A DNA stretch of 42,716 nt from a phage, in sequence record PZ386962.1; one strand, written 5' to 3'. The notes below the pieces were generated by a model that was not told the DNA's origin, made no database searches, and was given only the letters and a program-made list of their open reading frames with translations. This document shows, in pieces, positions 2,622 through 36,899 of this stretch; the stretch's first letter is position 1, and each line of letters opens with the position of its first letter. A program made the translations under genes and the position numbers.

Positions 2622-3110
2622 ATGAAACTGTCTCGGCTAATGGCCGGGGCAGTCCTCTCATTGTCACTGACATTGACGGGCTGCTCCGCAACTAGCGCAC
2701 TGTCTGCTGTAACTTCGGCTGTCTCTCCCAACAAGCCGGAACTCACGGCCCAAGTCGGTGCAGAGAACACGAAGCAAGGTATCGGTGTGACTGCGAAACA
2801 GTCCGACGAAACAAAGGTCGGTGACGTATCAGGTAACGCGAAAGTGGATACCGCTAAACAGGGTTCGAATGGCACTTCCGTCAAGGACGTTACAGGAGGC
2901 TCTGTAAACGCTTCTAAGCAGGGGTCGCAAATGACCCAAGGAAACGTACAGGCTCGCACAGTAATCGTCTCACAGAGCGACCCACGCAGTCTCCTGTGGG
3001 CTTTTGGCATGGGCCTTACATGTATCCTTGGTTTAGTCATGTGGTTTGTACCATCTCCGTGGAAAAGGAAAGTGAAAGATGACGGAAGCAAAGAAGGAGC
3101 CAACTCCTAA
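2622..3110 (+). CDS. unimolecular spanin-like outer-membrane lipoprotein with C-terminal transmembrane segment
   Basis: N-terminal signal peptide with lipobox LTGC (MKLSRLMAGAVLSLSLTLTGC), Ser/Thr/Lys-rich periplasmic region with repeated AKQG/SKQG units, C-terminal hydrophobic helix LLWAFGMGLTCILGLVMWFVP; AAGGAG RBS; lies immediately upstream of the holin candidate and endolysin. Confidence 0.55.
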   Translation: MKLSRLMAGAVLSLSLTLTGCSATSALSAVTSAVSPNKPELTAQVGAENTKQGIGVTAKQSDETKVGDVSGNAKVDTAKQGSNGTSVKDVTGGSVNASKQGSQMTQGNVQARTVIVSQSDPRSLLWAFGMGLTCILGLVMWFVPSPWKRKVKDDGSKEGANS

Positions 3111-3462
3111 CATCCACTCGCGTATGGGTGCAGTGGAGGCTCGTATGCAATCCGTAGAACTTCGACTCGACAAGCACGAGGTACAAATCGCCACTCTTGA
3201 AAAGGGCGATGCTGCAATGCTGGCCAAGCTCGCGGAGAACGATACCCGCTGGCAGACCGTTCAACAGCAGCTCCTTGTGGTTGAGCAAATTCAGGACATT
3301 CAGAAGACTATGAGCCATATCGGTAAGCTCTTTACGGCGGCGGCTCACGCTGTCAAATGGTGTCTCTTAACCGCATCCCTGTGTAGCGGTATCTACTTAG
3401 CGATTAAGGCTGGCGACCTCACGGCTCTCCAGTCCTTTATCACAACGATTATGGGGATGTAA
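3079..3462 (+). CDS. putative holin / lysis membrane protein (single C-terminal TMD)
   Basis: 127-aa ORF between spanin-like gene and endolysin; hydrophilic N-terminal region then one hydrophobic segment (LFTAAAHAVKWCLLTASLCSGIYLAI); start uncertain (internal Met at 3124 possible). Confidence 0.35.
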   Translation: MTEAKKEPTPNIHSRMGAVEARMQSVELRLDKHEVQIATLEKGDAAMLAKLAENDTRWQTVQQQLLVVEQIQDIQKTMSHIGKLFTAAAHAVKWCLLTASLCSGIYLAIKAGDLTALQSFITTIMGM

Positions 3463-3998: not shown

Positions 3999-4200
3999 GG
4001 GTATCCGAAAGCTGAGGCAATGAACAGGCCGTGGGTGCAATACCCCGGCTTGAAAATTGACTATTTGTACGTGCCCCTCCCTCGACCCAAATGACCGCGC
4101 GTACCCCCATGACGTGTGCGCGGATTAGCCTCGCGACGTGCGCGATAATTGCTCGCGTGCGCTGCGCGGCGCGTCGAAAGGATTGCCTGCGTTCGGTATA

Positions 4201-4608
4201 GCTCGTGCGTGTCGCGTTTCATCGTCTGCCGTGTGGCGTGCTGTGCGCTGTCCTGCTGGCTGTGCTGTGTGCCTGCTGTGTGGGCTATCGGTGGCGGTGT
4301 GGTGCTGTCCTGTGGGGACGCTCTGCGCTGGCTGTGCGGTGCTGTGCGCTGCGCGTGGTCGTGCGGGTATCTGTCTCTTTTCGTCGTGGTGTGTGGTGCT
4401 GGTGTGTAGCGGTGTGCGGCGTGGTGCTGCCGTCCTGCTGTGTGGTGTGCTGGTCTACTGTCTGCGCCTGCCAGCTCTGCGCGTCGTACTCTGCTACCTG
4501 CTGTTACTGTCCTACTGCCTTCACTGTCTGCCGTCTGTCAGTCCTACGGTCTGCCATCCGTCATCCGTTCGGCGCTCGCTTGTTTCGGCTGCGCCGCGCT
4601 CGCTCTGC
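4201..4608. repeat. A-depleted GT/GC-rich compositional island with degenerate short repeats
   Basis: About 400 bp in which the + strand has only ~16 A by hand count; built from degenerate GCTGTG / CTGTGCGCTG / ACTGTCTGCC units; long ORFs in all three + frames are a composition artefact. Confidence 0.7.
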
Positions 4609-4617
4609 GTATCTAGC

Positions 4618-4635
4618 GATACTATATCACTATAG
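4618..4635 (+). promoter_or_regulatory. T7-like phage promoter core candidate (TCACTATAG) near presumed genome left end
   Basis: GATACTATATCACTATAG: last 9 nt identical to T7 class promoter -8 to +1 (TCACTATAG); reverse complement carries the ATGAAAGTGTCTATAG element also found at 25618. Confidence 0.3.
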
Positions 4636-4651
4636 ACACTTTCATAATTAT

Positions 4652-4672
4652 CTAATGATTACAGTAACTTAT
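4652..4672. repeat. 21-bp direct repeat copy 1 (CTAATGATTACAGTAACTTAT)
   Basis: Exact 21-mer repeated at 4731-4751 within an AT-rich stretch. Confidence 0.85.
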
Positions 4673-4730: not shown

Positions 4731-4751
4731 CTAATGATTACAGTAACTTAT
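4731..4751. repeat. 21-bp direct repeat copy 2 (CTAATGATTACAGTAACTTAT)
   Basis: Exact copy of 4652-4672. Confidence 0.85.
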
Positions 4752-4772: not shown

Positions 4773-4801
4773 TTGCAAAGGTATTCGGTATTTGCTGTAA
4801 T
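4773..4801 (+). promoter_or_regulatory. sigma70-type early promoter candidate 1
   Basis: TTGCAA (-35) - 17 bp - TGcTGTAAT (extended -10). Confidence 0.5.
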
Positions 4802-4878: not shown

Positions 4879-4907
4879 TTGACAAGGCAAGCTCACTATG
4901 CTGTAAT
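4879..4907 (+). promoter_or_regulatory. sigma70-type early promoter candidate 2
   Basis: TTGACA - 17 bp - TGcTGTAAT (extended -10 TGn). Confidence 0.6.
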
Positions 4908-5015
4908 GCTTCCACGTCAGCCAGCAAGCTAAACAGTCATTGATAAAGACGTTAAAACACACGTAGGCGAACTGGTACGGTTTAATTAACTCTGAAAGGG
5001 CGCTGATTAAAACGG

Positions 5016-5044
5016 TTGACAGGATGAAATGAGTATGCTGTAAT
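5016..5044 (+). promoter_or_regulatory. sigma70-type early promoter candidate 3
   Basis: TTGACA - 17 bp - TGcTGTAAT. Confidence 0.6.
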
Positions 5045-5095
5045 GCACACCAGATTGACAGGGCAGCAAGCCAGTCAGTCAGAAGTAAAAAGTAG

Positions 5096-5124
5096 TTGAC
5101 ACGCTGAATACGATGTGATGTAAT
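5096..5124 (+). promoter_or_regulatory. sigma70-type early promoter candidate 4
   Basis: TTGACA - 17 bp - TGaTGTAAT. Confidence 0.6.
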
Positions 5125-5556
5125 CAGCACCGAGTTGAAAGGTTGCAAAACAACCTGCTCTGAGTGAACGTAAACAGGCCACGTAGTGTCTCGGCCTCAT
5201 GGGTATCCGGCGCAGCTAGGAACTGGTGAGGGCACCGCCGAAAGGCAATAGGGGTAGCGCCCGGTGCGATGGGAACGGAGAAGCGCGATAGACGCAGCGC
5301 AGTATCAGCACAATCCCAAACGTCTTATAAGGCGCGGAGTGAAGCGGGTAGGTAGGCAAGCTGGTAACGGTGAGCCGGACTGCTGGAGGACTCCTGAGAG
5401 TGGATGCAGACAATATCCACGGCGCGAAATGGGCGGGGCGATTTTTCAGGGTAGTGAATCCGACAAGCCAATCAATGCCAACGAGTGCAGACTGTACGGC
5501 GCGTCACAATGGGTTCACTATCCACCTGAAAATAGCCAACAACTGGAGAAATTAAT

Positions 5557-5946
5557 ATGTACCGTATCTATGCAAGCGCATATCGTCAGGGCAACGCTGA
5601 GTCAGTCAATCTGGCGCTTCATTGCAAGGCACTGCGAACGGTGCAGGACATGTTCGGAGTGGTTCCGGTCACACTGACAGGCAAGTTCGACAATGCGTAT
5701 GAGTTAAGCATGGTCTTCCCTGTCGATGGAATCTACGAAATCCGACAGGCTGTTAAGCTGTTTTGTAAAGCCTTCGAACAGGACTGCATCATGGTAGTGA
5801 CCAAAGACGACGATGCAATCTTCATGGACTCACCGTATCCGGGTAAGCCTGCTGGCAAGCTGGTCAGCAAGACTAACGAGGAAATGGAAGCCGGGCAGCA
5901 TACCGCTTGGACTTACGATGGTGAGCAATTTTGGGTAGTGGAGTAA
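5557..5946 (+). CDS. hypothetical early protein
   Basis: 129-aa ORF, GGAGA RBS 6 nt upstream, first well-supported ORF downstream of the promoter cluster. Confidence 0.6.
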   Translation: MYRIYASAYRQGNAESVNLALHCKALRTVQDMFGVVPVTLTGKFDNAYELSMVFPVDGIYEIRQAVKLFCKAFEQDCIMVVTKDDDAIFMDSPYPGKPAGKLVSKTNEEMEAGQHTAWTYDGEQFWVVE

Positions 5947-6120
5947 GGAGCATGACTATGTTCACTGCACTGTGTGTTATTGCGGCGGCGTGTTGGGTTA
6001 TTGACCAGCGCCTGCCTAAGCGAGCCTGATATGTGGGACTTACTGGTAGCGTTATTCTGGTTCGTCTTTGCAGGCTTGTGGATTTACTGGCTGACTCGTC
6101 CCAAATTATGGTGACTGCCT

Positions 6121-6142
6121 AATGCGTCTTGCGAGGCGCATT
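6121..6142 (+). other. intergenic RNA stem-loop (8-bp stem, TTGCGA loop)
   Basis: AATGCGTC-TTGCGA-GGCGCATT; same loop sequence with different stems recurs at 7075 and 7484. Confidence 0.5.
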
Positions 6143-6178
6143 GTGAAGTAACCAACCAACAACCCGACGAGGTGTATC

Positions 6179-6706
6179 ATGACTACTGTTAAATATACTG
6201 CATTCAAAGACGCTGCCGCTCTGGACAAGGCCATTGAGTCTACCGTCAAGAAGGCGCACTCACTGCGTACCGACATCCAGAACGTTGCTGTCGGCATCAT
6301 CCTGCACGCTTACCATCACGGCGACTACACTCGTGCTGAATCCTTCGTGAATCAGCTCGGTCAGGGTGTCCGTGGCAAGGCGCTGGTAGACTGGTTCGTC
6401 AAGTTCGGCGGCCTGATTATCGGTGAGAACGGCGGGAAACAGGGTTTCATTGGCTGGCAGGGCGCTGAGTATATCAAGGCGAACATTGACACGGCCAAAG
6501 CCACTATGTGGTGGAGCCTGAAACCGGAGCAGACCTTCGAAGGCTTCGACCTGCAAGATGCGCTCGAAAAGCTGATTGCCAAAGCTGAGAAGGCGCTGAA
6601 CAAGGCCAATGAGCTGCGTCACGAAGGCAAGGACGAAGACGCGAACAAGGTAGTGGTGCCGCAGAACGTCCTCGACCTGCTGCGCAAGGCTAAACAGGCT
6701 GCCTAA
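6179..6706 (+). CDS. hypothetical early protein
   Basis: 175-aa ORF with GAGG RBS. Confidence 0.6.
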   Translation: MTTVKYTAFKDAAALDKAIESTVKKAHSLRTDIQNVAVGIILHAYHHGDYTRAESFVNQLGQGVRGKALVDWFVKFGGLIIGENGGKQGFIGWQGAEYIKANIDTAKATMWWSLKPEQTFEGFDLQDALEKLIAKAEKALNKANELRHEGKDEDANKVVVPQNVLDLLRKAKQAA

Positions 6707-6781
6707 GCGGGATTGACTCAAGCCAGTGTCAAGGCGCTGGCTTTATGGCAATTCTGCCCCAACCTATTCGGAGTATTACCC

Positions 6782-7063
6782 ATGACTATCAAAACTGTAA
6801 CTGCATTCGTGACCAAGAAAGCTGGCGAACTGTATGGCTTCGCTGTTTCCCTGAACGAAGGCCAGTACCTGCACCACGTCCGTGAAGAAGGCGAGCCGAC
6901 TGAGGCCGTAGCCATCCTCGAAACGTTGCAGGGTATCCCGCTGCCGCACGAGTTCATCATCATGCTCGCTGAGCAGGACGAAGACGACCTGCGACTGCGC
7001 CACGGTGACGACCTGACGATTGAAGAAATCGGCACGTTCGAAGCAGAAGTAGACGACGAGTAA
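6782..7063 (+). CDS. small acidic early protein
   Basis: 94 aa from internal ATG with GGAG RBS; Asp/Glu-rich acidic C-terminus; preceded by hairpin plus GGCAAT-N4-TGCC box. Confidence 0.55.
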   Translation: MTIKTVTAFVTKKAGELYGFAVSLNEGQYLHHVREEGEPTEAVAILETLQGIPLPHEFIIMLAEQDEDDLRLRHGDDLTIEEIGTFEAEVDDE

Positions 7064-7074
7064 GCGTTGTCCTG

Positions 7075-7096
7075 CTGCATCCTTGCGAGGGTGCAG
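7075..7096 (+). other. intergenic RNA stem-loop (8-bp stem incl. one G-U, TTGCGA loop)
   Basis: CTGCATCC-TTGCGA-GGGTGCAG followed by GGCAATAGTGCC box. Confidence 0.5.
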
Positions 7097-7134
7097 CGTG
7101 GCAATAGTGCCTTACTCAATCCGAGGGTTTTAAT

Positions 7135-7476
7135 ATGAGCATCAAACTTGTAATCCTGACCAACATCGCAGCTTCCGCATTCGGCGCAGACGTACCGGAA
7201 GAAGCGCGTACTGCTGAGTGGGTGGCGTTCACCTCCGACGACGAGGGCTACCTGATTGCAGGCCGCAACCGCGACGGCGACTCTGCCGAGGACATCGTGG
7301 CGCACTTCGACGCTGACGAAGGCTTCGCTGGGTTCGCAGCTTCTGGCCTGCCGCTGGAACTGTTCGGCATGATGAACGGCGTGCCTTTCATCGACCGTGA
7401 GAAGCTGGGCGCAGACGTGTCTGTCACCGAGCTGAAAGTGTACGGCGAAGAAGATGACGTAGACTTCTCTGCGTGA
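7135..7476 (+). CDS. small acidic early protein (possible DNA-mimic-type anti-host protein)
   Basis: 113 aa, about 25 percent Asp+Glu by hand count with few basic residues; GAGGG RBS. Confidence 0.6.
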   Translation: MSIKLVILTNIAASAFGADVPEEARTAEWVAFTSDDEGYLIAGRNRDGDSAEDIVAHFDADEGFAGFAASGLPLELFGMMNGVPFIDREKLGADVSVTELKVYGEEDDVDFSA

Positions 7477-7483
7477 TACCTTA

Positions 7484-7505
7484 CTGCCTCGTTGCGACGG
7501 GGCAG
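7484..7505 (+). other. intergenic RNA stem-loop (8-bp stem, TTGCGA loop)
   Basis: CTGCCTCG-TTGCGA-CGGGGCAG followed by GGCAATCATGCC box. Confidence 0.5.
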
Positions 7506-7541
7506 TGCGGCAATCATGCCCCAATCTACTGAGGATTTATT

Positions 7542-7817
7542 ATGTCCACTATCAATGTGTTTTCCCTGAATAACGGCGGTCTGGCTTTCATCGTTGGCGA
7601 GACTGTTGACAATGCACCTTCACTGGGTGTGCAGCCGAAGCCGGACGCAAGCCATGACGAGGTGATTGGCGAGGTGCGCGAGGCGCTGGAAGACCTCGGC
7701 GGTATGCTGATTGCCATTCAGGGTGGCAAGCTGTCGGTTGAAAAGCTGAATGCACTGGAGCCTCGCTTCATCACCAGCTTTGAAGCTGACAACGTAGACG
7801 CGGCTGACTTCGAGTAA
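7542..7817 (+). CDS. small acidic early protein
   Basis: 91 aa, GAGGA RBS, acidic composition. Confidence 0.6.
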   Translation: MSTINVFSLNNGGLAFIVGETVDNAPSLGVQPKPDASHDEVIGEVREALEDLGGMLIAIQGGKLSVEKLNALEPRFITSFEADNVDAADFE

Positions 7818-7852
7818 GCCGACCACTAACCCACCAGTAACAGGAGAACAAC

Positions 7853-8089
7853 ATGGCTAAGTTTGAACTGGTACGCTTCACCGACCCGAACGATGGTGAA
7901 GTAACCTATGCACAATTCGCTGACGACCGCCAGCAGGTGGCAGTGTACACCAGCAAGACCTTTGCTTTCGAACAGTTCGGTGAGGAACTGCACTTTGACA
8001 GCGTGAGCTACGTGCTGCTGTCCGGTGGTGAGTACGCCGATGCAGTGCAGGCCGCACTGGATGAAGGTGAAGTCATCAAGACTGCGTGA
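7853..8089 (+). CDS. small acidic early protein
   Basis: 78 aa, AGGAGA RBS. Confidence 0.6.
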   Translation: MAKFELVRFTDPNDGEVTYAQFADDRQQVAVYTSKTFAFEQFGEELHFDSVSYVLLSGGEYADAVQAALDEGEVIKTA

Positions 8090-8157
8090 TTTCTGTCAGC
8101 CCATCCATAGCGGTGGGCTGTAGGGCAATCATGCCACAACTAACTGAGGGTTTTACC

Positions 8158-8442
8158 ATGGCTAAAGTAACTGCATACTACTCCGCACAAGAGAAAGACA
8201 TCGTGGCTGTTGTTGGTGACGGCTTCGAAGAAGGCAACTATGCGCTGTGCATTTCCGGCTGCAAAGAAGTACCGAAGCTGAACACGGTTGATGATGCTGT
8301 GGCTGCGCTGCCGTCGCTGCAAGCTGACATCGAACGCATGGGTGAGCTGGCCTTCCTGCTGCACGGTGGTTCGCTGAACGCTACTGCTTCGGTTGACATG
8401 CCTGCCAAGGGCTACGAAGAAGTCGGTAGCTTCGAGGTCTAA
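8158..8442 (+). CDS. small acidic early protein
   Basis: 94 aa from ATG with GAGGG RBS; preceded by stem-loop and GGCAATCATGCC box. Confidence 0.55.
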   Translation: MAKVTAYYSAQEKDIVAVVGDGFEEGNYALCISGCKEVPKLNTVDDAVAALPSLQADIERMGELAFLLHGGSLNATASVDMPAKGYEEVGSFEV

Positions 8443-8444
8443 GC

Positions 8445-8780
8445 ATGGCGTTGCATCCGGTCAAGGTATTCCGTGGGCCTGACATTACGGATGGGCAAGA
8501 CGTGGCGGTACTGCTGTACCGCCTGCCCGATGGTCAGGAAGGGCTGGTCGTCATCGACCAGATTGAAATCTTAGGGCAGCAGATGTTGACGAGTGAGGCG
8601 AGCGACGAGCAAATCATCGAACGCTTCAAGGCGTACGCCGGGCGCAGGCCATTCATCATCGACCTGCTTAACGAGCTGCACTACAGCGCCGCGCCGCTGG
8701 CTATCCAGACGTGGCTCAAGATTCTCACTCCCATCTACGAGGGTGAGATGTATCTGTTTGGTATTGACAACGAGGAATAA
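8445..8780 (+). CDS. hypothetical early protein
   Basis: 111-aa ORF, GAGGT RBS. Confidence 0.55.
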   Translation: MALHPVKVFRGPDITDGQDVAVLLYRLPDGQEGLVVIDQIEILGQQMLTSEASDEQIIERFKAYAGRRPFIIDLLNELHYSAAPLAIQTWLKILTPIYEGEMYLFGIDNEE

Positions 8781-8782
8781 TC

Positions 8783-9028
8783 ATGGGTAAGAAAGTAACT
8801 TTGAAAGTAGTTAAGCGCCGCCCCGGATTCACCGTGGGTACTGAGTACCCGGCAGTGCTGATTGCTGAGGGCGAGAATCTGGTCAAGGCATTCCCTAAGC
8901 TGGCCTCGGTGTACGGCAAGGGCGCTGAGGATGTGGCAGGCTACGAAACTGTAGCCGTACTGGACGAGCGTGGCCATCCGTGTGACTTCTTCACGCAGGG
9001 CTATCACGACTGGTTCGAAATCGTTTAA
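8783..9028 (+). CDS. hypothetical early protein
   Basis: 81-aa ORF, GAGGA RBS. Confidence 0.55.
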   Translation: MGKKVTLKVVKRRPGFTVGTEYPAVLIAEGENLVKAFPKLASVYGKGAEDVAGYETVAVLDERGHPCDFFTQGYHDWFEIV

Positions 9029-9058
9029 CCAACCACCTAACCAAGAGAGGGTAACAAC

Positions 9059-9301
9059 ATGGCACGTTCTATTCTGATTCGCATCATCGGCCACACCGCA
9101 CAGCCGTCCCATTTCTCCGGCGCAGTGCGTGACACTACCATCGGTAAAGAGTACGCCGCTCTGCTGGTTGAAGCTGGCGAAGAAATCCCGGACGGCTGGG
9201 AAACTGACGAGCAAGGCATCGCGTTTGTTGATGACGTGGGTGATGACTGCTTCGCATACAGCTCGGCGCACCTCGGACACACCATCGAAATCGTCGAGTG
9301 A
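9059..9301 (+). CDS. hypothetical early protein
   Basis: 80-aa ORF, AGAGAGGG RBS. Confidence 0.55.
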   Translation: MARSILIRIIGHTAQPSHFSGAVRDTTIGKEYAALLVEAGEEIPDGWETDEQGIAFVDDVGDDCFAYSSAHLGHTIEIVE

Positions 9302-9357
9302 TAAGCTACAGCCTCTGCTTGCGGGGGCTGTGTCATTATCAAACGAGCGAGGTGAGC

Positions 9358-9510
9358 ATGAGCGGCAGCACATACAATGCGCACGCCAACCAGATAAGCT
9401 ACGCAGGGTACTGCGCACTGGGTGGGGCGAGCAACCCGAACCTAATGAGCCGGGCGGTGTATCTCGGCGGTCACTACATGCACCACGAATACTATTTAAT
9501 CAGGGGGTAA
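9358..9510 (+). CDS. hypothetical small protein
   Basis: 50 aa from ATG with GAGGTG RBS; preceded by stem-loop at 9309-9330 with TTGCG-containing loop. Confidence 0.35.
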   Translation: MSGSTYNAHANQISYAGYCALGGASNPNLMSRAVYLGGHYMHHEYYLIRG

Positions 9511-9512
9511 CT

Positions 9513-9797
9513 ATGGTACTGGCATCTGAAAGTATTATCGAACAGGCTGGCGCAATCCGTGAAGCTGAGCATCTGCGTGGGGTAGCCGCAACGCTCGGTC
9601 ACTGTGCTGGCAACGGCGGTCTGCGTGGGCATTCAGTCGGCGGCGTATTTCCCTGCGTGATATTCTCGCGGGGCAACCCACATGAACACCTCGACTGGTG
9701 CTTCCTCGCACCGAACGGCGACGAGTTCGACGGCTTCGTAAGTTATGAAGATGCGTATGCAGCCGCGCAGGTATGGCTGGAACAACGAGAGGTGTGA
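9513..9797 (+). CDS. hypothetical protein
   Basis: 94 aa from ATG with GGGGG RBS; upstream part of the longer listed ORF lacks an RBS and overlaps other genes. Confidence 0.5.
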   Translation: MVLASESIIEQAGAIREAEHLRGVAATLGHCAGNGGLRGHSVGGVFPCVIFSRGNPHEHLDWCFLAPNGDEFDGFVSYEDAYAAAQVWLEQREV

Positions 9798-10608: not shown

Positions 10609-10762
10609 GCTGGCCGTAGTCAAATCACCCACCGGATTATTCTGGTGGGTTGTTAATAAACTCCAGCCGAATAAACCTTTGGCTGTGCGTGACACAAAGT
10701 GGGAAGCCGAGAGTAAACTCGAAGACCTGCAACGCATAGTGCGTAATGTTATTCCGGTGTAG
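10592..10762 (+). CDS. hypothetical small basic protein
   Basis: 56 aa, GGAG RBS, overlaps 3' end of previous gene. Confidence 0.35.
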   Translation: MQRDTKLAVVKSPTGLFWWVVNKLQPNKPLAVRDTKWEAESKLEDLQRIVRNVIPV

Positions 10763-10772
10763 TCATCTACTC

Positions 10773-10797
10773 ATGCCTGTTATTATTTAGCAGGCAT
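10773..10797 (+). other. stem-loop (7-bp stem ATGCCTG/CAGGCAT, AT-rich loop) at early/middle boundary
   Basis: Perfect 7-bp inverted repeat with 11-nt loop; no U-tract; followed immediately by the ATGAAGGTGTCTATA motif. Confidence 0.35.
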
Positions 10798-10835
10798 TAT
10801 GAAGGTGTCTATATTGGCCAACGTGAGGATGAAAT

Positions 10836-12181: not shown

Positions 12182-12610
12182 GTGCTTGAGTGTATTGACC
12201 ACGGCCAGAAGGGTAATGCTAATGGCTACGGATATACCAGCCGCTATGTAGATGGCAAGCGGGTAGTGGTTGGGCTGCACCGCGCAGCTTACTGCGATGC
12301 GCATGGCCTGCCTTACTCTGCAATCAAGGGCAAGGTGGTCATGCACCGTTGTGATAACCCACGCTGTATCAACCCTGACCATCTGGTGTTGGGTACACAG
12401 GGAGACAACATGCAGGACATGATGGGCAAACGCCGACACCACAAGGGTGAGGCAACACCGCACGCCAAGCTGACGAGTGAGCAGGTCGTGCTTATCCGTA
12501 AGCTGTACGCTGAGGGCGGCGTAACCCAACGTGAACTTGCGTTGGAGTTCGGTGTATCCCAAACGAATATCAGTGCCATCGTAAGGGGAGAAACTTTCAG
12601 TGTTGGATAA
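12182..12610 (+). CDS. HNH homing endonuclease (HNH + C-terminal HTH)
   Basis: GTG start with AGGAG RBS; HRCDNPRCINPDHLVLGT HNH core; C-terminal helix-turn-helix-like tail; paralog of 18584-19009. Confidence 0.75.
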   Translation: MLECIDHGQKGNANGYGYTSRYVDGKRVVVGLHRAAYCDAHGLPYSAIKGKVVMHRCDNPRCINPDHLVLGTQGDNMQDMMGKRRHHKGEATPHAKLTSEQVVLIRKLYAEGGVTQRELALEFGVSQTNISAIVRGETFSVG

Positions 12611-13865
12611 ACTGTTGTTAACGGTGATGCGCGAGCGCGGGAAATACAACTCCCTGCGACACGCCATCCCGGAAGATACAATGAGCCAGACCACGGGCTA
12701 TATGCTGCGTGCTTACGGCTCATACTTTGACGCGTTCCCGGACAGTGACTTCATTGACATTGAGACACTGGGTACGCATGTTCGTTTGAAGACAGGCAGC
12801 ACGCCTGAACAGATGGCAGCCTTCGATTCGTTGTGCGCTCAGCTCAAAGAGTACAAGCCAACGAAGGAGCAGAAGGAGGGCATCCTTGACCAGCTCGTAG
12901 AGTTGGACACTGCTGGTCGTGCGAACCTGCTAATGCAACGGTACGATAATGGTGAAGAACTTGATATTATCTATGAGCTTGGCCGTCTGGCTGAGGGCGC
13001 ACGCCGCAGTCGGGGTCAATCATCCGTTACCGATTACGTCGATGACGATGTTGTTGACATTATTAATCGGACTGATGATGACCAAGGCTTTAAGTTCGGT
13101 CTCATGTGCCTGCAAGATAGCGTACGCGTACTGCTTCCCGGCGACTCCGTTGCAATCGCTGCCCGACCTGACAGTGGGAAGACCAGCTTCATCGCGTTTA
13201 ACCTTACGCGAATGGCGGCGACAGCAGCGAAGCTCTATCCGGGCAGACCAATCCTGTGGTTCAACAACGAAGGTCAGGGCATCAACATCATCCCGCGCAT
13301 CTATCAGGCGGCGCTCAACTGTACGCTCCCGGAACTGAAAGAGCTGGGTGAGGACAGAGGCAAGCTGCACGCTGCGTATGCCAAAGCACTGGGTGCGCCA
13401 GCCAATGTGATTCGTGTTAAGGATATGCACGGCGCGACGCTGGCGAAAGCTGAGCAGGTTATCGAAGCGATGAACCCGTGCATCGTGGTGTGGGATATGC
13501 TTGCCAACTTCAAGCTGTCTGTGTCTGACCCGTCAAGCAACAAGGCGAGTCAGGTCGAGCAGCTATGGCAGGAGGTACGTGAGCTGGCAGTGCGCCACAA
13601 CTTTGTGTCGCTGGCTACGGTTCAGGTATCTGCTGATGGTGCCGATGATATGTTCCCGGCACTGGATGCGCTCAAGGATTCCAAGACTGGTATCCAAGGG
13701 GCGACTGATGTTATCGTGATGCTCGGCAGTGTGGATGACCCATCACTGGCGGCGCGGCGCGGTGTCAGTACGCCGAAGAACAAACGCCAGATTGCTGGGC
13801 GTCCAAGCAACGTGCGGTCGCAGGTACACTTCTTTGCTGACCGCTGCCAATACGAGGATATGTAA
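12600..13865 (+). CDS. DNA helicase (DnaB-like / T7 gp4 helicase-domain-like)
   Basis: Walker A ARPDSGKTSF; size 421 aa; lies between primase and DNA polymerase; GTG start assumed. Confidence 0.7.
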   Translation: MLDKLLLTVMRERGKYNSLRHAIPEDTMSQTTGYMLRAYGSYFDAFPDSDFIDIETLGTHVRLKTGSTPEQMAAFDSLCAQLKEYKPTKEQKEGILDQLVELDTAGRANLLMQRYDNGEELDIIYELGRLAEGARRSRGQSSVTDYVDDDVVDIINRTDDDQGFKFGLMCLQDSVRVLLPGDSVAIAARPDSGKTSFIAFNLTRMAATAAKLYPGRPILWFNNEGQGINIIPRIYQAALNCTLPELKELGEDRGKLHAAYAKALGAPANVIRVKDMHGATLAKAEQVIEAMNPCIVVWDMLANFKLSVSDPSSNKASQVEQLWQEVRELAVRHNFVSLATVQVSADGADDMFPALDALKDSKTGIQGATDVIVMLGSVDDPSLAARRGVSTPKNKRQIAGRPSNVRSQVHFFADRCQYEDM

Positions 13866-14227
13866 TGAGCCATTTGAAGGTAGGTGACCGAGTAGTAAAC
13901 ATTGATGCACGCAGTGTGCATTACGGTGCGAAGGGTACTGTGGTTGACATCAACAACAAGTACGTGAGCATTGACCGCGACGATGGTGCGCGTGGTTCTG
14001 GTATCAGTGGCTCGTGGACTGCACGCCATGCGTCGTGGGCGCTGATTGGTGACGCTCCGCATGTGGCAGCCACGCCTGAACCGGAGGCGACTGCCGAGGA
14101 CTGGAGCTACGCTGAGGCTGAGCGTCTGTACCAAGCAGCGTGCGATGCCATGTCAGTGTACAACCAGTACGTTGAGCGTAAGCCGACGACCAGCTACCTG
14201 CCCGGCAGCGTGCCGAGTAAGTGGTGA
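13865..14227 (+). CDS. hypothetical protein (N-terminal KOW-like segment)
   Basis: 120-aa ORF, start overlaps helicase stop (TAATG). Confidence 0.5.
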   Translation: MSHLKVGDRVVNIDARSVHYGAKGTVVDINNKYVSIDRDDGARGSGISGSWTARHASWALIGDAPHVAATPEPEATAEDWSYAEAERLYQAACDAMSVYNQYVERKPTTSYLPGSVPSKW

Positions 14228-17688: not shown

Positions 17689-18584
17689 CCGCATCTGTAT
17701 TGAACCGCATGAACTCCATCGTCGAACAGTATGTTGACGAGGAAGAACTTGACTTTAACGAAGCCACGTCTGGTGGTGGTAAGCTGCTGCCGGAAGGTAA
17801 GGCACTGGCACGTCTGGTTGGCTACATTGAAGTGGGGCCGAGCGTAACCAAGCAGGCACCGGACAAGCCGCCTGTCAATAAGTTCTTCCTCCAGTTCGCG
17901 CTGTGGGGCAAGGCCAAGAACGGCGAGACTTACCACGAAGTTGTCAATGGTAAGATGGTGCCGGGCAAGGTGCGCACGCAGTTCATCGCTGTGAAGAAAG
18001 ACCTCAACAGCAAGTCCGGCGCATACAAACTGTTTAAGCGTATGAACCCGGACAAGACTGCGAAGCACTTCGCGCAGCTTCTGAACCACACCTTCATCGT
18101 TCCGATTATCCACAACGAATCGGGCGAGGGCGAGAACAAGAAGGTGTACGCCAACATCGACCTTGAGAACATCATGCTCGCGGTTGACCCGGTGACTGAC
18201 CAGCCGTACCCGGTGCCGGAGGTTGAGGACGAGACGCTGTTCAAGCTGTTCCTGTGGAACCGTCCGACCAAGGAAGACTGGGAATCCCTGTACATCGAAG
18301 GTAAGAACGACGATGGCAAATCCAAGAACTGGATTCAGGATAAGCTGCTGGAATCTCCAGAGTTCCCCGGCTCTCCGCTTGACCTGCTGCTGAATGGTGC
18401 AGGTGCTGGCTCGGCAATCGCTGAGCTGCCGGAGCTGGGCGACGTAAGCCAGCCGGAGGAAGTGGCTGAGGTTAAGCAGGAAGTGCAGGAGCTGGCGACG
18501 GCTGGTGCGGCTGACAAGTCGGCAGCGTCTAAGCCTGAGCCGGACGTAACTGGTGACGCTGACTTCGGGCTGCCGAGTCTGTAA
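17685..18584 (+). CDS. hypothetical DNA-metabolism-associated protein with acidic C-terminus
   Basis: 299-aa ORF overlapping DNA polymerase stop; acidic C-terminal tail; function not assignable. Confidence 0.5.
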   Translation: MTASVLNRMNSIVEQYVDEEELDFNEATSGGGKLLPEGKALARLVGYIEVGPSVTKQAPDKPPVNKFFLQFALWGKAKNGETYHEVVNGKMVPGKVRTQFIAVKKDLNSKSGAYKLFKRMNPDKTAKHFAQLLNHTFIVPIIHNESGEGENKKVYANIDLENIMLAVDPVTDQPYPVPEVEDETLFKLFLWNRPTKEDWESLYIEGKNDDGKSKNWIQDKLLESPEFPGSPLDLLLNGAGAGSAIAELPELGDVSQPEEVAEVKQEVQELATAGAADKSAASKPEPDVTGDADFGLPSL

Positions 18585-29416: not shown

Positions 29417-30409
29417 ATGGCTGATAACACCTATACCCCAAATCAGTTCCGTCCACACTGGGGTGGCGCGAACTCTGATAACGACATCCACCTTGAGGTG
29501 TATGACCGTGATGTTCAAACCCAGTTCATCTACAACTCCATCTTCCGTTCCGGTCTGACCAACTTCAAGTCTGTGGCTAACCAGTCCAACACTTGGCGTG
29601 GCGACCGTCTCGGCTCTGTGACTGTTAAGGGTCGTCGCTCTGGCGAGGCGCTGGACAACCAGCCAGTTCGCTCTGAGAAACTGATTGTCACTGTGGATAC
29701 CGTGTCTTACATCCGTATCCCGATTGACTATCAGGACGACTGGACTGCGCCGGACTTCCGCGCTGAGCTGACCCGTAACATGGGTACTGCACAGGCGAAG
29801 GCGTTCGACCAAGCGCACGTCATCCAGCTCCAGAAGTCTGCTGACTTCGTGCCTCCGGCTTCTCTGGCTGGTGCGTTCAACGCAGGTATCAAGGAGCAGG
29901 TCACTCTGACTGGCACCGTGGCATCTGAGGAAGATGATGCGTCTGCGCTGGTACACGGCCACAAGAAAGCTATCGAGGCGTTCATTCGCCGCGATGCTGA
30001 CCTTGGCCGACTGGTTACGCTGATTGACCCGGCGTGGTTCAGCATTCTGCTGGAGCACAAGAAACTGATGAACGTTGAGTTCACTGGTGGTCGTGGTGTC
30101 AACGACTTCGCAATGCGTCGTGTTGCGTATGTCAACGGTATCCGTATCATCGAGAGCAACGCGTTCCCGCAGGCGGCAATCACCGACCACATCCTCGGCC
30201 CTGACTTCAACGTCACCGCCGACGAGATTCAGCGCAAGATGATTATCTTCGACCCGTCTCTGGCTCTGGTCACTGTCGAAGCCCAGCCGCTGTTCAACCG
30301 CGTATGGGATGACGAACGTGAACTGACCAACGTTCTGGATAGCTTCCACATGTACACCGTGGGTCAGCGTCGTCCAGACGTGGTTGCTGTAGTTACCACT
30401 GAGTCCTAA
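29417..30409 (+). CDS. major capsid protein (T7 gp10-like)
   Basis: 330 aa; lies after scaffolding gene; AAGGA RBS; followed by hairpin terminator as for T7 gene 10. Confidence 0.8.
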   Translation: MADNTYTPNQFRPHWGGANSDNDIHLEVYDRDVQTQFIYNSIFRSGLTNFKSVANQSNTWRGDRLGSVTVKGRRSGEALDNQPVRSEKLIVTVDTVSYIRIPIDYQDDWTAPDFRAELTRNMGTAQAKAFDQAHVIQLQKSADFVPPASLAGAFNAGIKEQVTLTGTVASEEDDASALVHGHKKAIEAFIRRDADLGRLVTLIDPAWFSILLEHKKLMNVEFTGGRGVNDFAMRRVAYVNGIRIIESNAFPQAAITDHILGPDFNVTADEIQRKMIIFDPSLALVTVEAQPLFNRVWDDERELTNVLDSFHMYTVGQRRPDVVAVVTTES

Positions 30410-30419
30410 TGGTAAACTC

Positions 30420-30442
30420 GAAGCCCTTCTCTGAGGGGCTTC
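30420..30442 (+). terminator. stem-loop terminator candidate downstream of capsid gene
   Basis: Perfect 7-bp stem GAAGCCC/GGGCTTC with 9-nt loop, followed by TATGATTAT; same placement as T7 T-phi. Confidence 0.5.
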
Positions 30443-30465
30443 TATGATTATCACTGGGAGGTTTT

Positions 30466-31014
30466 ATGACTCTACTCGAAGCAGTCAACATTGTTCTTCG
30501 AGCATTGTCTGAACACACTGTATCATCCACCGAGATTCGAAACCCGTCCGTTACCCTTGCACTTGACAAGATTGGTATCGCACAGGAAGAAGTTCTCACT
30601 GATGGTTGGTGGTTCAACAATATTCGAATCACCATCCCCCGCGAAACGGATGGTCGTGTCAAATACCCCGCCGACGCATTGAGCTTCATCCCTGATGGGT
30701 TTGAGTGTATCGTGCGTGGCGGGTATCTTTACAACGCTAATTCCCAAACCTTTGTTTTTACAGAAGATGTTCCGGGATTGGTGACTTACGATTTAGGCTG
30801 GGATGACCTACCCAGTCCGGTACAACGACTCGTTGCATATCAAGCAGCTATCTCCGCGTACTCGGATGACATGGGTGACAATCCCCCGGCCAGTGTTACT
30901 GGTGGTTATGCCATGGCCCTGCAACAGTGCCAGTCTATCCATACCCGCCAGCGTCGATTCAATGCTCGCCAGCGCAAGAGCTGGTGGCGCTATGAGAGTG
31001 CTCGGAGAGGATAA
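30466..31014 (+). CDS. tail tubular protein A (T7 gp11-like)
   Basis: 182 aa, position after capsid gene, GGGAGG RBS. Confidence 0.7.
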   Translation: MTLLEAVNIVLRALSEHTVSSTEIRNPSVTLALDKIGIAQEEVLTDGWWFNNIRITIPRETDGRVKYPADALSFIPDGFECIVRGGYLYNANSQTFVFTEDVPGLVTYDLGWDDLPSPVQRLVAYQAAISAYSDDMGDNPPASVTGGYAMALQQCQSIHTRQRRFNARQRKSWWRYESARRG

Positions 31015-34202: not shown

Positions 34203-36899
34203 ATGGCTACTATGCGTGACCAGCGTGGCGCTAACCTTAATGCTGCGCAGCAGGGATTACCAAGTGTGCAGCAGGCGCAGACTCCGTTTAGTCTCGCAGG
34301 CCGCGATACTCGCATCGACACGTTTCCTACCGAGTCCATTCAACGCGTACTGAACATGGCCAGCGCACTTGCTGGCCGTGTCACTGAGCGTGTGAACGAG
34401 GAAGAATACCTCAAGGGGGCTAACGCCGCCGCGAGTGGCAAGGCTGTCGAGGATTTGGATTCGAACTGGCTTACCGCTCAGTTCCAGAAAGCTGGTTACA
34501 ACGACCAGTACAAACGAATGGAAATGGCGAAGGTCGCCTCAGACATCTCGGCTAACATGCCGCAGTATGCGAAGATGGCACCCGACGAGTTCTTGAAGGT
34601 GGTGGACGAGAAGACCACTGGCCTGTTCGAGAACACTGATGGTATGACGCTGAACGGGCGTAAGTCACTGCTGGAGAACCAGCTCACGTTCAGCAACACC
34701 CTTATCCGTACGCAGGCTGCCCAGCATGGTAAGTATCTGGTTGAGCAGCGTGCGGCGATGTACAACACGCAGGGTAACACTCTAGTTACTCTGGCGGCTC
34801 AGGCCAAGGCCACTGGCGATGGCGGCGCGTACGCTAACGCTACGGCAGCAACCATGGCATGGGCCAAGTCTATTCTGGCAGACGACAAGCTGCCACTGGA
34901 GACTCGCCGGACGCAGGTGACTTCCATGATGGGGCTGATGCTCCAGCAGGATTTGCGTACCCCGGTCGAGACTGCTGTGAACTCCGGGCTATTCAACGAG
35001 CTGCCTGCCGACGATTTGGCCAAGCTGCAAGGTCAGATTCGTGAATCCAAATCTCGTACTGAGGTTCAGGATAACATGGGTCTGCTGGCGCAGAAGGGTC
35101 AACTTGATGCGCGTCAGGCAGTATTCGGTGACGTTACGCCGGAACAGTACACGCAGACGCTCCAGCAGATGGTGGACAATAAGCTGATTAGCGCTGGTGG
35201 TTTCAGCTCTGCTATCGAGTCCTTCTACAAGGATTACGCCAAGCAAGCCAAGGCCAGCCAGCTCGGTCAGGCTTACGCCACCGGGAACCAGACGTACATG
35301 CTCCAGCAGGGCGCGAGTGAGCAGGATGGTGCTGACGCATTCATCAAGGCTCGCATGAAGCAACCGGGCGCGACGGCAAGTTCCGTGGCGTTCGACCTGC
35401 TGCAAGTGGGTGCGCAGACTGGCTTCCCTTCTGCGTACAAGTCTGCTGCCAAGTTGATTGAACCATCCCTGTCGAACTTCGGCACCGTGGATGAAATGAA
35501 CCCTGACGCTGCCCGTACCGTAACCGGGCTGATTGACCGTGTAACCGTGGCCGAGAATCAGGGTGACAAGACTGCATGGACTAAGCTCCTGTCCGGTCTG
35601 TCAGAAGAAAACCAAGAGAAGATGGTGTACATGCGCGAGCAGATTAAGGCTGGCCGCACCATCGACCAAGCTGGTCAGGGTTACATCAAGCAGCAGCAGG
35701 ACTACGCTGGCTTGACCCCGGCACAGAAATCTCAAATCCTCACGCAGCGTCAATCTGACGTTAACTCTGTGGTGAATGGGCTGGAGGCTCAGGGCTTCCT
35801 CTCTCGCACTTGGCAGGGTCTGGCTGGTCTGTTCTCAGATACTCAGCAGAACCTGTTCCAAGCACGCGTCGCATCTGGTGACATTACTGCCGCGCAGGAA
35901 ATGTCGGAGGTGTCTGCCGCGTACCGCGAGGAGCTGCAAGCTGTAGTCCTCAAGAACCCGAACGTGACGAAGGATGGTATGGAAGCACTCGCATCTGCGA
36001 AGCTGGCCAACCGTGTCCTGCGCGTCGGTGAAACCACATTCAGCCCCGGCTCTGTGCTTATCGCACCGAGAGGCCAAACTGTTCAGTCTATGCTCGGCTT
36101 GCCTGCTGACGTAGCCCCCGACCGTATCGGTCGCGCTATCGCCGCACTTGACCAGACCAAGGCACCAGAAGGCTTCGAGTCGTCCTACTCGTTTATGCCA
36201 GATGGCTCTCTGAACGTTCAGTTCTTCAACAAGCAAGGTGACGTTTCCCCGAACTCGGTACGCATTCTGCCGCAGCTCGTGCAGGAACGCATCCGTGAAG
36301 ACGACCGTGCAGCAGCCACTGCCAACAACGAAGTGTATGGCGACGGGAAACTCTTTGTTGATAAGACCAGTAACGTGGGTATCCGCGTGAATGGCGTTAA
36401 TACTGCGGGGGTAGACGAGCAGCGTATGCTTGTTGCCCGTGGCAAACTGATTGACTTCGAAGGTATCCGCAGCACCACCTACCGCGACAGCACTGGCGTA
36501 CAGACTAACGGTGTCGGTATCTCCGACCGTAGCCCGTACTTTGCCCAAGGCCAAGCGTCTGGTATGAAAGGCGGTACTGAGTGGTCGCCGCGAACTATCC
36601 ACGATACGTTCGTGCAACACACCAACATGGTAGCCCGGCAGATGCCCGGCACTGCTGCTGCACTGGGGTGGAGTCGTGATAACGATGCCCAGTTCCAGTT
36701 CATGATGCAGATGGGTTATCAGGCAGGTTCAAGCTGGTATCGTACCGATGGTGCGTACAGCAAACTGGCTGATGCAATCCGTGTTGGCGACCAAGAGAAA
36801 GCTGTGCAGGCTCTGGCTGCGACCCCGGCTTATAAGCTGTCGCAGGACGAGCGTAAGCAGTATTACGTCCAAACTCTACTCGCAGGTATGCAGGAATGA
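34203..36899 (+). CDS. internal virion (core) protein B (gp15-like)
   Basis: 898 aa, large mostly alpha-helical-looking protein between tail tube genes and tailspike. Confidence 0.65.
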   Translation: MATMRDQRGANLNAAQQGLPSVQQAQTPFSLAGRDTRIDTFPTESIQRVLNMASALAGRVTERVNEEEYLKGANAAASGKAVEDLDSNWLTAQFQKAGYNDQYKRMEMAKVASDISANMPQYAKMAPDEFLKVVDEKTTGLFENTDGMTLNGRKSLLENQLTFSNTLIRTQAAQHGKYLVEQRAAMYNTQGNTLVTLAAQAKATGDGGAYANATAATMAWAKSILADDKLPLETRRTQVTSMMGLMLQQDLRTPVETAVNSGLFNELPADDLAKLQGQIRESKSRTEVQDNMGLLAQKGQLDARQAVFGDVTPEQYTQTLQQMVDNKLISAGGFSSAIESFYKDYAKQAKASQLGQAYATGNQTYMLQQGASEQDGADAFIKARMKQPGATASSVAFDLLQVGAQTGFPSAYKSAAKLIEPSLSNFGTVDEMNPDAARTVTGLIDRVTVAENQGDKTAWTKLLSGLSEENQEKMVYMREQIKAGRTIDQAGQGYIKQQQDYAGLTPAQKSQILTQRQSDVNSVVNGLEAQGFLSRTWQGLAGLFSDTQQNLFQARVASGDITAAQEMSEVSAAYREELQAVVLKNPNVTKDGMEALASAKLANRVLRVGETTFSPGSVLIAPRGQTVQSMLGLPADVAPDRIGRAIAALDQTKAPEGFESSYSFMPDGSLNVQFFNKQGDVSPNSVRILPQLVQERIREDDRAAATANNEVYGDGKLFVDKTSNVGIRVNGVNTAGVDEQRMLVARGKLIDFEGIRSTTYRDSTGVQTNGVGISDRSPYFAQGQASGMKGGTEWSPRTIHDTFVQHTNMVARQMPGTAAALGWSRDNDAQFQFMMQMGYQAGSSWYRTDGAYSKLADAIRVGDQEKAVQALAATPAYKLSQDERKQYYVQTLLAGMQE

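Follow-up and report, generated by a model that had tools for sequence, protein, structure and literature searches.

Hairpins between the early genes

Hairpins that lie between the small early genes of a phage were analysed in sequence record PZ386962.1 (42,716 nucleotides (nt), one strand, 5' to 3'; the whole stretch is referred to as the window, and all positions are window positions). All genes of the window are carried by the + strand. The region 5500-9600 shared 97% identity with Escherichia phage altidsur and 80-96% with approximately 20 further Bonnellvirus (Autographiviridae) phages, the hosts of which are E. coli, Enterobacter, Cronobacter, Kosakonia and Pantoea. Three tandem host-type promoters precede the first early gene, for an S-adenosylmethionine (SAM) lyase, which is the sole early gene product named by Pfam (Table 1). 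It is followed by about a dozen small genes of unknown function, as far as approximately 10608. With the promoters upstream and every gene on the + strand, the hairpin region therefore lies inside a host-transcribed, polycistronic early operon.

A first-pass annotation of the sequence had described hairpins upstream of several early open reading frames (ORFs). Six uninterrupted stems were found at the places that it named (sites A and C to G; Table 1). The sites of the window lie on the sense strand, 5-13 nt past a stop codon and 23-38 nt ahead of the next start codon. Together, the early spacers (736 nt in total) contained 8 hairpins of at least 9 base pairs (bp), versus a mean of 0.16 and a maximum of 3 in 1000 dinucleotide shuffles. 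The range of 6121-9330 first given for the family was too narrow, since further copies are present at 10773-10797 and 30420-30442; the ORF that ends at 30409, directly 5' of the second of these, is read as the capsid gene from its position only. At 8/8 sites the + strand RNA folded 5-12 kcal/mol better than its complement, because the G·U pairs of the stems turn into C·A mismatches on the other strand. The hairpins are therefore a feature of the sense-strand RNA and not a DNA palindrome. Rfam gave 0 matches at gathering score in the whole window, and published descriptions of bonnellviruses made no mention of RNase III sites or hairpins.

Table 1. Promoters, first early gene, hairpin sites and boxes of the window. 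E-values are those of the bonnellvirus-only covariance model in the window unless listed as T7-only (with the position of the match). Cuts were predicted by analogy with T7 R1.1, 10 nt 3' of the wobble G.
Feature	Position	Strand	Upper stem	Lower stem or complete structure	Gene downstream	E	T7-only E (match)	Predicted cut
Three tandem host-type promoters, TTGACA-N17-TGTAAT (3 matches vs 0.16 expected)	4879-4907, 5016-5044, 5096-5124	+						
First early gene, SAM lyase (Pfam)	5557-5946	+						
Site A	6109..6154	+	6120-6143, 10 bp, UAAUGCGUCU-UGCG-AGGCGCAUUG	UGGU.ACU/AGU.ACCA (stems UGGU/ACCA and ACU/AGU), with the UGA stop of tiny ORF 6031-6114	6179	3.8e-5		after 6146
Site C	6707..6757	+	6720-6743, 10 bp, loop CAAG	GCGGGAUUG/CAAUUCUGC; 4/5-nt internal loop ACUC/UAUGG	6782	8.5e-14	1.3e-3 (6706-6758)	after 6746, directly 5' of GGCAAU
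Site D	7064..7110	+	7073-7098, 11 bp, loop UGCG	GUUGUC/GGCAAU; single C·U mismatch between stems	7135	1.1e-10		after 7101
Site E	7471..7519	+	7482-7507, 11 bp, loop UGCG	GCGUGAU/AUCAUGC, with upstream stop codon	7542	8.7e-14		after 7510
Site F	8084..8134	+	8097-8120, 9 bp, loop CAUAGC, CAGCCCAUC...GGUGGGCUG	GCGUGAUU/AAUCAUGC, with upstream stop codon	8158	1.4e-13	0.36 (8083-8135)	after 8123, directly 5' of GGCAAU
Site G	9299..9341	+	9307-9332, 11 bp with loop CUUG, or 9 bp with UGCUUGCG	UGAUAAG/C.AUUAUCA	9358	5.2e-13	9e-4 (9295-9345)	after 9335
Site 10764	10764..10807	+	10773-10797	CAUCU-ACUC-AUGCCUGUUA-UUAUU-UAGCAGGCAU-UAUGA-AGGUG	10836	9.4e-10	4.4e-3 (10759-10812)	after 10800
Site 30410 (late region)	30410..30453	+	30420-30442	GGUAA-ACUC-GAAGCCCUUC-UCU-GAGGGGCUUC-UAUGA-UUAUC		4.5e-9	7.4e-6 (30406-30457), best T7-only match of the window	after 30445
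GGCAAT-N2-TGCC box	6747-6758, 7100-7111, 7509-7520, 8124-8135	+						

Two-part structure of the sites

For folding, each spacer was taken with approximately 15 nt of the upstream gene or with 30-nt flanks. In every fold, the originally described hairpin formed the upper stem, separated by a small internal loop from a lower stem; the hairpins are thus the tops of longer two-stem structures, the boundaries of which had been drawn too narrowly. In the minimum-energy folds, upper stems of 9-11 bp and lower stems of 5-9 bp added up to approximately 18-21 bp at 8/8 sites, which agrees with the length of about two helical turns for interrupted hairpins processed by E. coli RNase III (PMC1540722). 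Internal loops of 4/5 nt were present at sites C, E, 10764 and 30410, and other asymmetric loops at sites A, F and G. At site D the loop was reduced to a 1x1 mismatch, which leaves the helix nearly continuous. The ACUC/UAUGR loops of sites C, 10764 and 30410 have the 4/5-nt geometry of T7 R1.1.

Stable G+C-rich hairpins just past stop codons could also be plain transcription terminators, attenuators or passive stabilisers of 3' ends that involve no endonucleolytic processing, and a 3' hairpin protects an RNA end however that end was made. However, the tails of the six hairpins read UGUGAAG, UAUGGCA, UGGCAAU, CGGCAAU, UAGGGCA and UCAUUAU, so that a U-tract follows none of them, and a terminator scan of 6100-9400 was empty. 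Terminators were excluded on these two grounds. Moreover, a terminator needs neither a covarying lower stem nor a fixed U·G wobble or an ACUC/UAUGR internal loop, and a covariance model built from Bonnellvirus copies (see below) matched the RNase III sites of T7 and gave no match at the T7 terminators TE and Tphi. We regard this group of explanations as highly improbable.

Covariation among relatives

Site copies were collected from the window and 17 related phage loci. The relatives came mainly from GenBank phage records; an IMG/VR search with a 175-amino-acid (aa) early protein gave 5 loci. Copies were picked solely because a spacer contained an upper hairpin, and the 73 distinct copies so obtained were aligned. 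The lower helix was not used in this selection.

The covariation of the stems that had been proposed earlier was borne out. From the pooled alignment, RNAalifold recovered only the upper stem, and compensatory double changes were present at 10/10 of its predicted upper-stem pairs. The lower stems of different site types lie in two registers, one column apart. The lower helix was 71% paired, versus 28-45% with the partner strand slid by 1-3 columns; its covariation score was 0.40, versus 0.155 or less in the controls, and 0/500 shuffles reached the observed value.

A second conserved element, GGCAAT-N4-TGCC, had been reported downstream of four of the hairpins. It was found at each of these places (4 matches versus 0.03 expected), with a spacing of N2 and not N4. 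Its reading as a separate element did not hold, as the box is the descending (3') strand of the lower stem, in the helix for which the slid controls are given above. Its pairing partner is the sequence surrounding the upstream stop codon (GCGUGAU/AUCAUGC at sites E and F, GCGGGAUUG/CAAUUCUGC at site C), and compensatory change was present at its N positions (columns 9/55, U-A in 43 copies and G-C in 13). The box-less sites A and G have lower stems of unlike sequence.

Alone, the box can fold as a 4-bp mini-hairpin, GGCA/UGCC (72% paired). As sole account of the box the mini-hairpin was rejected: all of its pairs form only where the stem does not vary, and it therefore has no covariation of its own, whereas the lower stem is present with differing sequences in every site type. 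Three further readings were discarded. GGCAAT-N-TGCC as a sigma-54 promoter has a GG-to-GC spacing of 9 nt and not 12. TTGCGA as the -35 element of a sigma-70 promoter has the wrong spacing to -10-like hexamers, and 6100-9400 holds no promoter-like site. Gene duplication as the source of the shared box and leader is contradicted by the four downstream proteins, which have no detectable mutual similarity (all pairs E >0.3). The box is invariant at its four sites despite differing pairing partners and unrelated downstream genes.

The lower stem or the mini-hairpin might act mainly as a translational operator that controls ribosome access downstream or couples it to termination upstream. At several sites the lower stem includes the upstream stop codon and would therefore be melted by a terminating ribosome, and the box stands 22-26 nt ahead of the start codon. 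Against this, the Shine-Dalgarno sequence and the start codon were outside the structure in every fold, and the processing sites of T7 are built alike, with GUGAUA...UAUCAC including the stop codon. A mainly translational role is considered very unlikely.

RNase III determinants and match to T7

The sites were compared with the requirements of E. coli RNase III as defined by mutagenesis of a minimal substrate derived from R1.1. Position 2 of the distal box is stringently U·G, the change of UG to GU lowering reactivity 50-fold and that of UG to AU >30-fold; the proximal box takes G-C at position 1, whereas position 2 is A-U or U-A, with G-C or C-G there blocking binding; and at least 11 bp are needed between cut and loop, with no strict requirement for tetraloop sequence (PMC1540722). 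R1.1, between T7 genes 1 and 1.1, has an asymmetric 4/5-nt internal loop (PMC6121014). The internal loop restricts cleavage to one strand and leaves a 3' hairpin (PMC1540722, PMC3867540).

A U·G pair, with U on the 5' arm, was the eighth pair of the upper stem at 8/8 window sites. It was present at the same pair in 36/52 distinct stems of the relatives and in T7 R0.3, R1 and R1.1. The reverse G·U orientation was uncommon, at approximately 9/52 distinct stems, versus U·G in nearly all. The stems keep the G-U pairs that the first-pass annotation had remarked on because this wobble is conserved. Six pairs below it, at proximal-box position 2, A-U or U-A was found in 59/73 copies and 7/8 window sites (the exception being the site D type, with G-C). 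Five pairs below, at proximal-box position 1, G-C was found in 42/73 copies, and eight steps below, a C·U mismatch as in R1.1 was found in 19/73. The wobble and the two proximal-box pairs agree with the determinants established for the enzyme.

The folds of individual sites resemble those of T7. R1.1 folds as GACAA-ACUC-AAGGUCAUUC-GCAA-GAGUGGCCUU-UAUGA-UUGAC, and site C as GGGAUUG-ACUC-AAGCCAGUGU-CAAG-GCGCUGGCUU-UAUGG-CAAUUCU. R0.5 folds as GUGAUAG-ACUC-...CCUU-UAUGAUUAUCAC, and site 30410 likewise ends GAGGGGCUUC-UAUGAUUAUCAC; the lower stem of site G is comparable to GUGAUAG...UGAUUAUCAC of R0.5. The upper stem of site F is close to that of R1, CAGGUCAUC-UGCG-GGUGGCCUG, the loop of which is the UGCG of other window sites, and the counterpart of site F in one relative (an IMG/VR contig) is CAGGCCAUC-UGCG-GGUGGCCUG. 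In T7, the lower stems of R0.5, R6.5 and R18.5 open with GUGAUA, and the UGA of R0.5 is the stop codon of gene 0.4.

The leader after site F (ACAACUAACUGAGGG, 8136-8157) and the T7 gene 1 leader after R1 (UUUACUAACUGGAAGAGG, 3150-3170) share the octamer ACUAACUG. Together with the R1-like hairpin ahead of it, the octamer could reflect common descent or chance.

The RNase III signals of T7 are R0.3, R0.5, R1, R1.1 and R1.3 in the early region and R3.8, R4.7, R6.5, R13 and R18.5 in the late region, with R1.1 as the model substrate. As annotated features, RNase III sites were listed neither in the T7 records (NC_001604, V01146) nor in phiA1122. The early precursor contains five signals (PMC3867540), and among the late sites R3.8, R4.7, R6.5 and R18.5 are the strong ones (bioRxiv 10.1101/106799).

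Two covariance models were built independently. The T7-only model, from seven T7 sites and nothing else, matched the window at the five sites listed in Table 1, on the + strand without exception. The bonnellvirus-only model, from the 73 copies without any T7 sequence, was run on both strands of the whole T7 genome. Its top seven matches (5845-5902, 1425-1483, 36814-36871, 13851-13907, 850-905, 3098-3153 and 18505-18571; E 7.5e-10 to 1e-3) lie just upstream of genes 1.1, 0.5, 18.5, 4.7, 0.3, 1 and 6.5, and a weak eighth match lies ahead of gene 1.3. We take these eight places to be R1.1, R0.5, R18.5, R4.7, R0.3, R1, R6.5 and R1.3. Within the window, the eight training sites were the only matches of this model with E below 0.21.

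The parallel with the RNase III hairpins of T7 that had been drawn from the sequence alone is thus stronger than first noted, in architecture, in the ACUC...UAUGR flanks, in the distal-box U·G and in the reciprocal models. Considering the structures, their covariation, strand specificity and position, and the reciprocal match, the hairpins are interpreted as T7-type processing signals of the host RNase III, with a probability of about 0.85.

Several points weigh against this interpretation. Site D is the least canonical, as its G-C at proximal-box position 2 is a known antideterminant of binding (PMC1540722); it might undergo cleavage of both strands, be a poor substrate, or bind the enzyme without being cut. 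Sites A, D and E were missed by the T7-only model at E up to 10, and the E-values of both models are rough, having been obtained with a shortened calibration. The 73 copies share descent, so that cell counts in the covariation table exceed the number of independent events. The T7 site coordinates are presumably those of Dunn & Studier 1983 and are backed only indirectly by the papers on T7 cited above (PMC6121014, PMC3867540, bioRxiv 10.1101/106799), through the names of the sites, the place of R1.1 between genes 1 and 1.1 and the count of five early signals. Finally, cleavage, the exact cut positions and an effect on mRNA stability are predicted by analogy.

Variation of the loop

A shared TTGCGA loop had been taken as the mark of a sequence-specific reader. 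The loop is exact at three sites, where it consists of a UGCG tetraloop and a closing U-A pair. The word TTGCGA was not enriched (12 occurrences versus 24.7 expected), and 3/6 of its + strand copies stood at hairpin tips. UGCG and UACG are both stabilising tetraloops of the UNCG class. Were a phage or host protein to read the conserved UUGCGA loop, the hairpins would be operators of an RNA-binding protein and not RNase III substrates; this would agree with the exact U-UGCG-A at three window sites and with UGCG as the commonest loop of the family. The loop is not conserved at orthologous sites, however, and 3/6 of the originally described sites lack UGCG. Site C orthologues have CAAG, UAAG, CUCG, CACG, UCCG or UGCG, site D orthologues UGCG, CAACG or CAAUG, and site A orthologues UGCG or UACG. 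It is the U·G at bp 8 of the stem that is conserved, rather than the loop, and R1 of T7, a bona fide RNase III site, carries UGCG. Because orthologue loops vary, R1 shares the UGCG loop and the enzyme has no strict loop requirement (PMC1540722), a loop-specific reader is unsupported; we regard it as highly improbable.

Proposed processing of the early transcript

If the sites act as their T7 counterparts do, host RNA polymerase would start at the three tandem promoters (4879-5124) and transcribe the early genes as one long RNA. Six of the longer early spacers, which is most of them, fold into the two-part hairpin, the lower stem of which combines sequence around the upstream stop codon with the first part of the downstream leader. 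The upper stem would be bound by RNase III via the bp-8 U·G as distal box and the A-U-rich base of the stem as proximal box, and the enzyme would cut the 3' side of the internal loop, approximately 3 nt past the upper stem. The upstream message would then end in the stable upper hairpin and resist 3'-to-5' exonucleases; protection of this kind by a 3' hairpin has been described (PMC1540722, PMC3867540). The downstream message would start 22-35 nt ahead of its start codon with the ribosome-binding site intact. Where a spacer has no site (7818-7852 and 9029-9058) or genes abut, the messages would remain joined, which would give approximately seven processed early mRNAs.

Elements of this kind have been known for decades, and the understanding of RNase III processing itself is unchanged; what is new here is the presence of unannotated signals in Bonnellvirus. 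For a genus that has been little studied, the sites provide a predicted map of the early transcripts, with cuts named to within a few nucleotides. They also account for repeated intergenic elements that are unlisted in the deposited annotations of the relatives retrieved, where coding genes are the only features apart from a single repeat region (in altidsur). The 73 natural variants can serve as a comparative set of the stem changes that the enzyme tolerates, and for phage engineering the sites would be natural borders of expression units.

Possible exchange of hairpin and leader units

Whole units of hairpin plus gene are inserted or missing among the relatives; altidsur, for instance, carries an additional 343 nt at window position 6702.

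The hairpin-plus-leader units might be mainly recombination cassettes, short homologies by which small early genes are shuffled, a role compatible with RNase III processing. When window positions 6100-9400 were compared with the 17 relatives, 34/85 ends of similarity blocks lay within 60 nt of a site, versus 12.3 expected. Unrelated genes share the box and leader, and one cassette type is found ahead of different gene families in different phages, and the reverse. However, spacers tolerate insertions and deletions anyway, the relatives are not independent samples, and most cassette types stay with the same downstream gene. Shuffling accounts for neither the U·G wobble nor the T7 match, and as the main function of the units it is distinctly unlikely.

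Under a related, speculative proposal, which we put forward as unlikely, hairpin, GGCAAU-NN-UGCC box and leader would form a portable expression cassette shared by unrelated early genes, with roles for a 5'-end hairpin and in gene exchange. The box would be a strand of the lower stem before cleavage and a hairpin at the new 5' end after it. The predicted new 5' ends at 6746/6747 and 8123/8124 coincide with the first G of GGCA-AUNN-UGCC. A hairpin in this place could shield the monophosphorylated end from RNase E, and the shared sequence could give the homology for swaps of small early genes among bonnellviruses. The evidence for such a cassette is thin, and the genomes are not independent samples.

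Other features of the window

Two further hairpins were matched by neither covariance model and were rejected as members of the family. A 10-bp hairpin, ACCCACCGGA-UUAU-UCUGGUGGGU, which follows the last early gene at 10627-10650, is conserved in most relatives. It is a candidate early terminator, although its U-rich tail is only weak. An 11-bp hairpin, ACUGUCUCGGC-UAAUG-GCCGGGGCAGU, lies at 2627-2653, at the very start of ORF 2622-3110. It is kept in altidsur, forsur, ROV85 and one IMG/VR contig, and its stem resembles that of site E.

Upstream of the early genes, a stretch of approximately 400 nt at 4190-4610, just 5' of the early promoters, is almost without A (4% A; A-free runs of 65, 50, 48 and 47 nt), G/T/C-rich and repetitive. 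It is probably near the physical end of the genome, a repeat_region being annotated at the corresponding place in altidsur. An exact 20-nt direct repeat, TAATGATTACAGTAACTTAT, is present at 4653-4672 and 4732-4751 in an AT-rich segment directly 5' of the early promoters; parts of it are also present inverted. A weaker copy of the TTGACA-N17-TGTAAT promoter lies at 4773-4801. The leader between the early promoters and the first gene is approximately 430 nt long and free of RNase III-like sites.

Between the SAM lyase gene and site A lie two tiny back-to-back ORFs, 5952-6029 (25 codons) and 6031-6114 (27 codons), the second with a very hydrophobic product (MWDLLVALFWFVFAGLWIYWLTRPKLW). The segment at approximately 6014-6117 is replaced by other sequence in most relatives. 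The adjacent small early proteins of 81 aa (8783-9028) and 80 aa (9059-9301) have weak local similarity (blastp E 0.003 over 17 residues) and may be old paralogues. From ORF sizes and positions, the gene for the phage RNA polymerase of Bonnellvirus appears to be placed late, as in phiKMV.

Comparison with known systems

The closest known system is the set of RNase III sites of T7, in which promoters A1-A3 and gene 0.3 mirror the layout of tandem promoters and lyase gene described here. In both phages the sites are intergenic, on the sense strand of a polycistronic RNA, with a 9-11 bp upper stem and an asymmetric ACUC/UAUGR loop; the lower stem often holds the upstream UGA stop codon, and UNCG or GNRA tetraloops are frequent. 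The Bonnellvirus sites differ in density, with 6 sites in 3.2 kb versus 5 in the approximately 7 kb of the T7 early RNA, and in the invariant GGCAAU-NN-UGCC lower strand of four sites, which has no T7 counterpart. In addition, sites A, D and E have a U·G-closed stem of 11 or 10 bp without the AAGG...CCUU core.

T4-type promoter-early-stem-loop (PeSL) cassettes are units that contain an early promoter. They are also short repeated units that flank small early genes in a variable region and are associated with mosaic junctions, as the Bonnellvirus units are. Unlike them, the Bonnellvirus units are without promoter-like sequence: neither a generic sigma-70 scan nor TTGACA-N17-TGTAAT at 3 mismatches or fewer found a promoter in 6100-9400, and the defining PeSL feature is therefore missing.

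With yeast Rnt1p, the likeness is that hairpins are cut by an enzyme of the RNase III family. To our knowledge, Rnt1p, which reads an AGNN tetraloop, is the only established example of recognition through the loop sequence, the mode that the first-pass annotation had suggested. The loops of Bonnellvirus, in contrast, vary and none is AGNN, and E. coli RNase III ignores the tetraloop (PMC1540722).

Run on Pseudomonas phage phiKMV, the bonnellvirus-only model gave weak matches only, at 4566-4621 and at an annotated terminator. On Salmonella phage SP6 it gave two strong matches (E 1e-7 and 3e-6), and the ACUC-AAGG...CCUU-UAUGAA motif is present there at 12220-12275 and 30547-30608. SP6 differs in that it has these two strong matches only, neither of them among its first early genes. 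The SP6 matches indicate that the motif spans several subfamilies of enterobacterial Autographiviridae, and its spread, including the weak phiKMV matches, is consistent with a signal tuned to RNase III of enteric hosts. The T7-type signal, including its U·G distal-box determinant, is thus conserved well beyond the T7 subfamily, in Bonnellvirus and in at least two SP6 sites.

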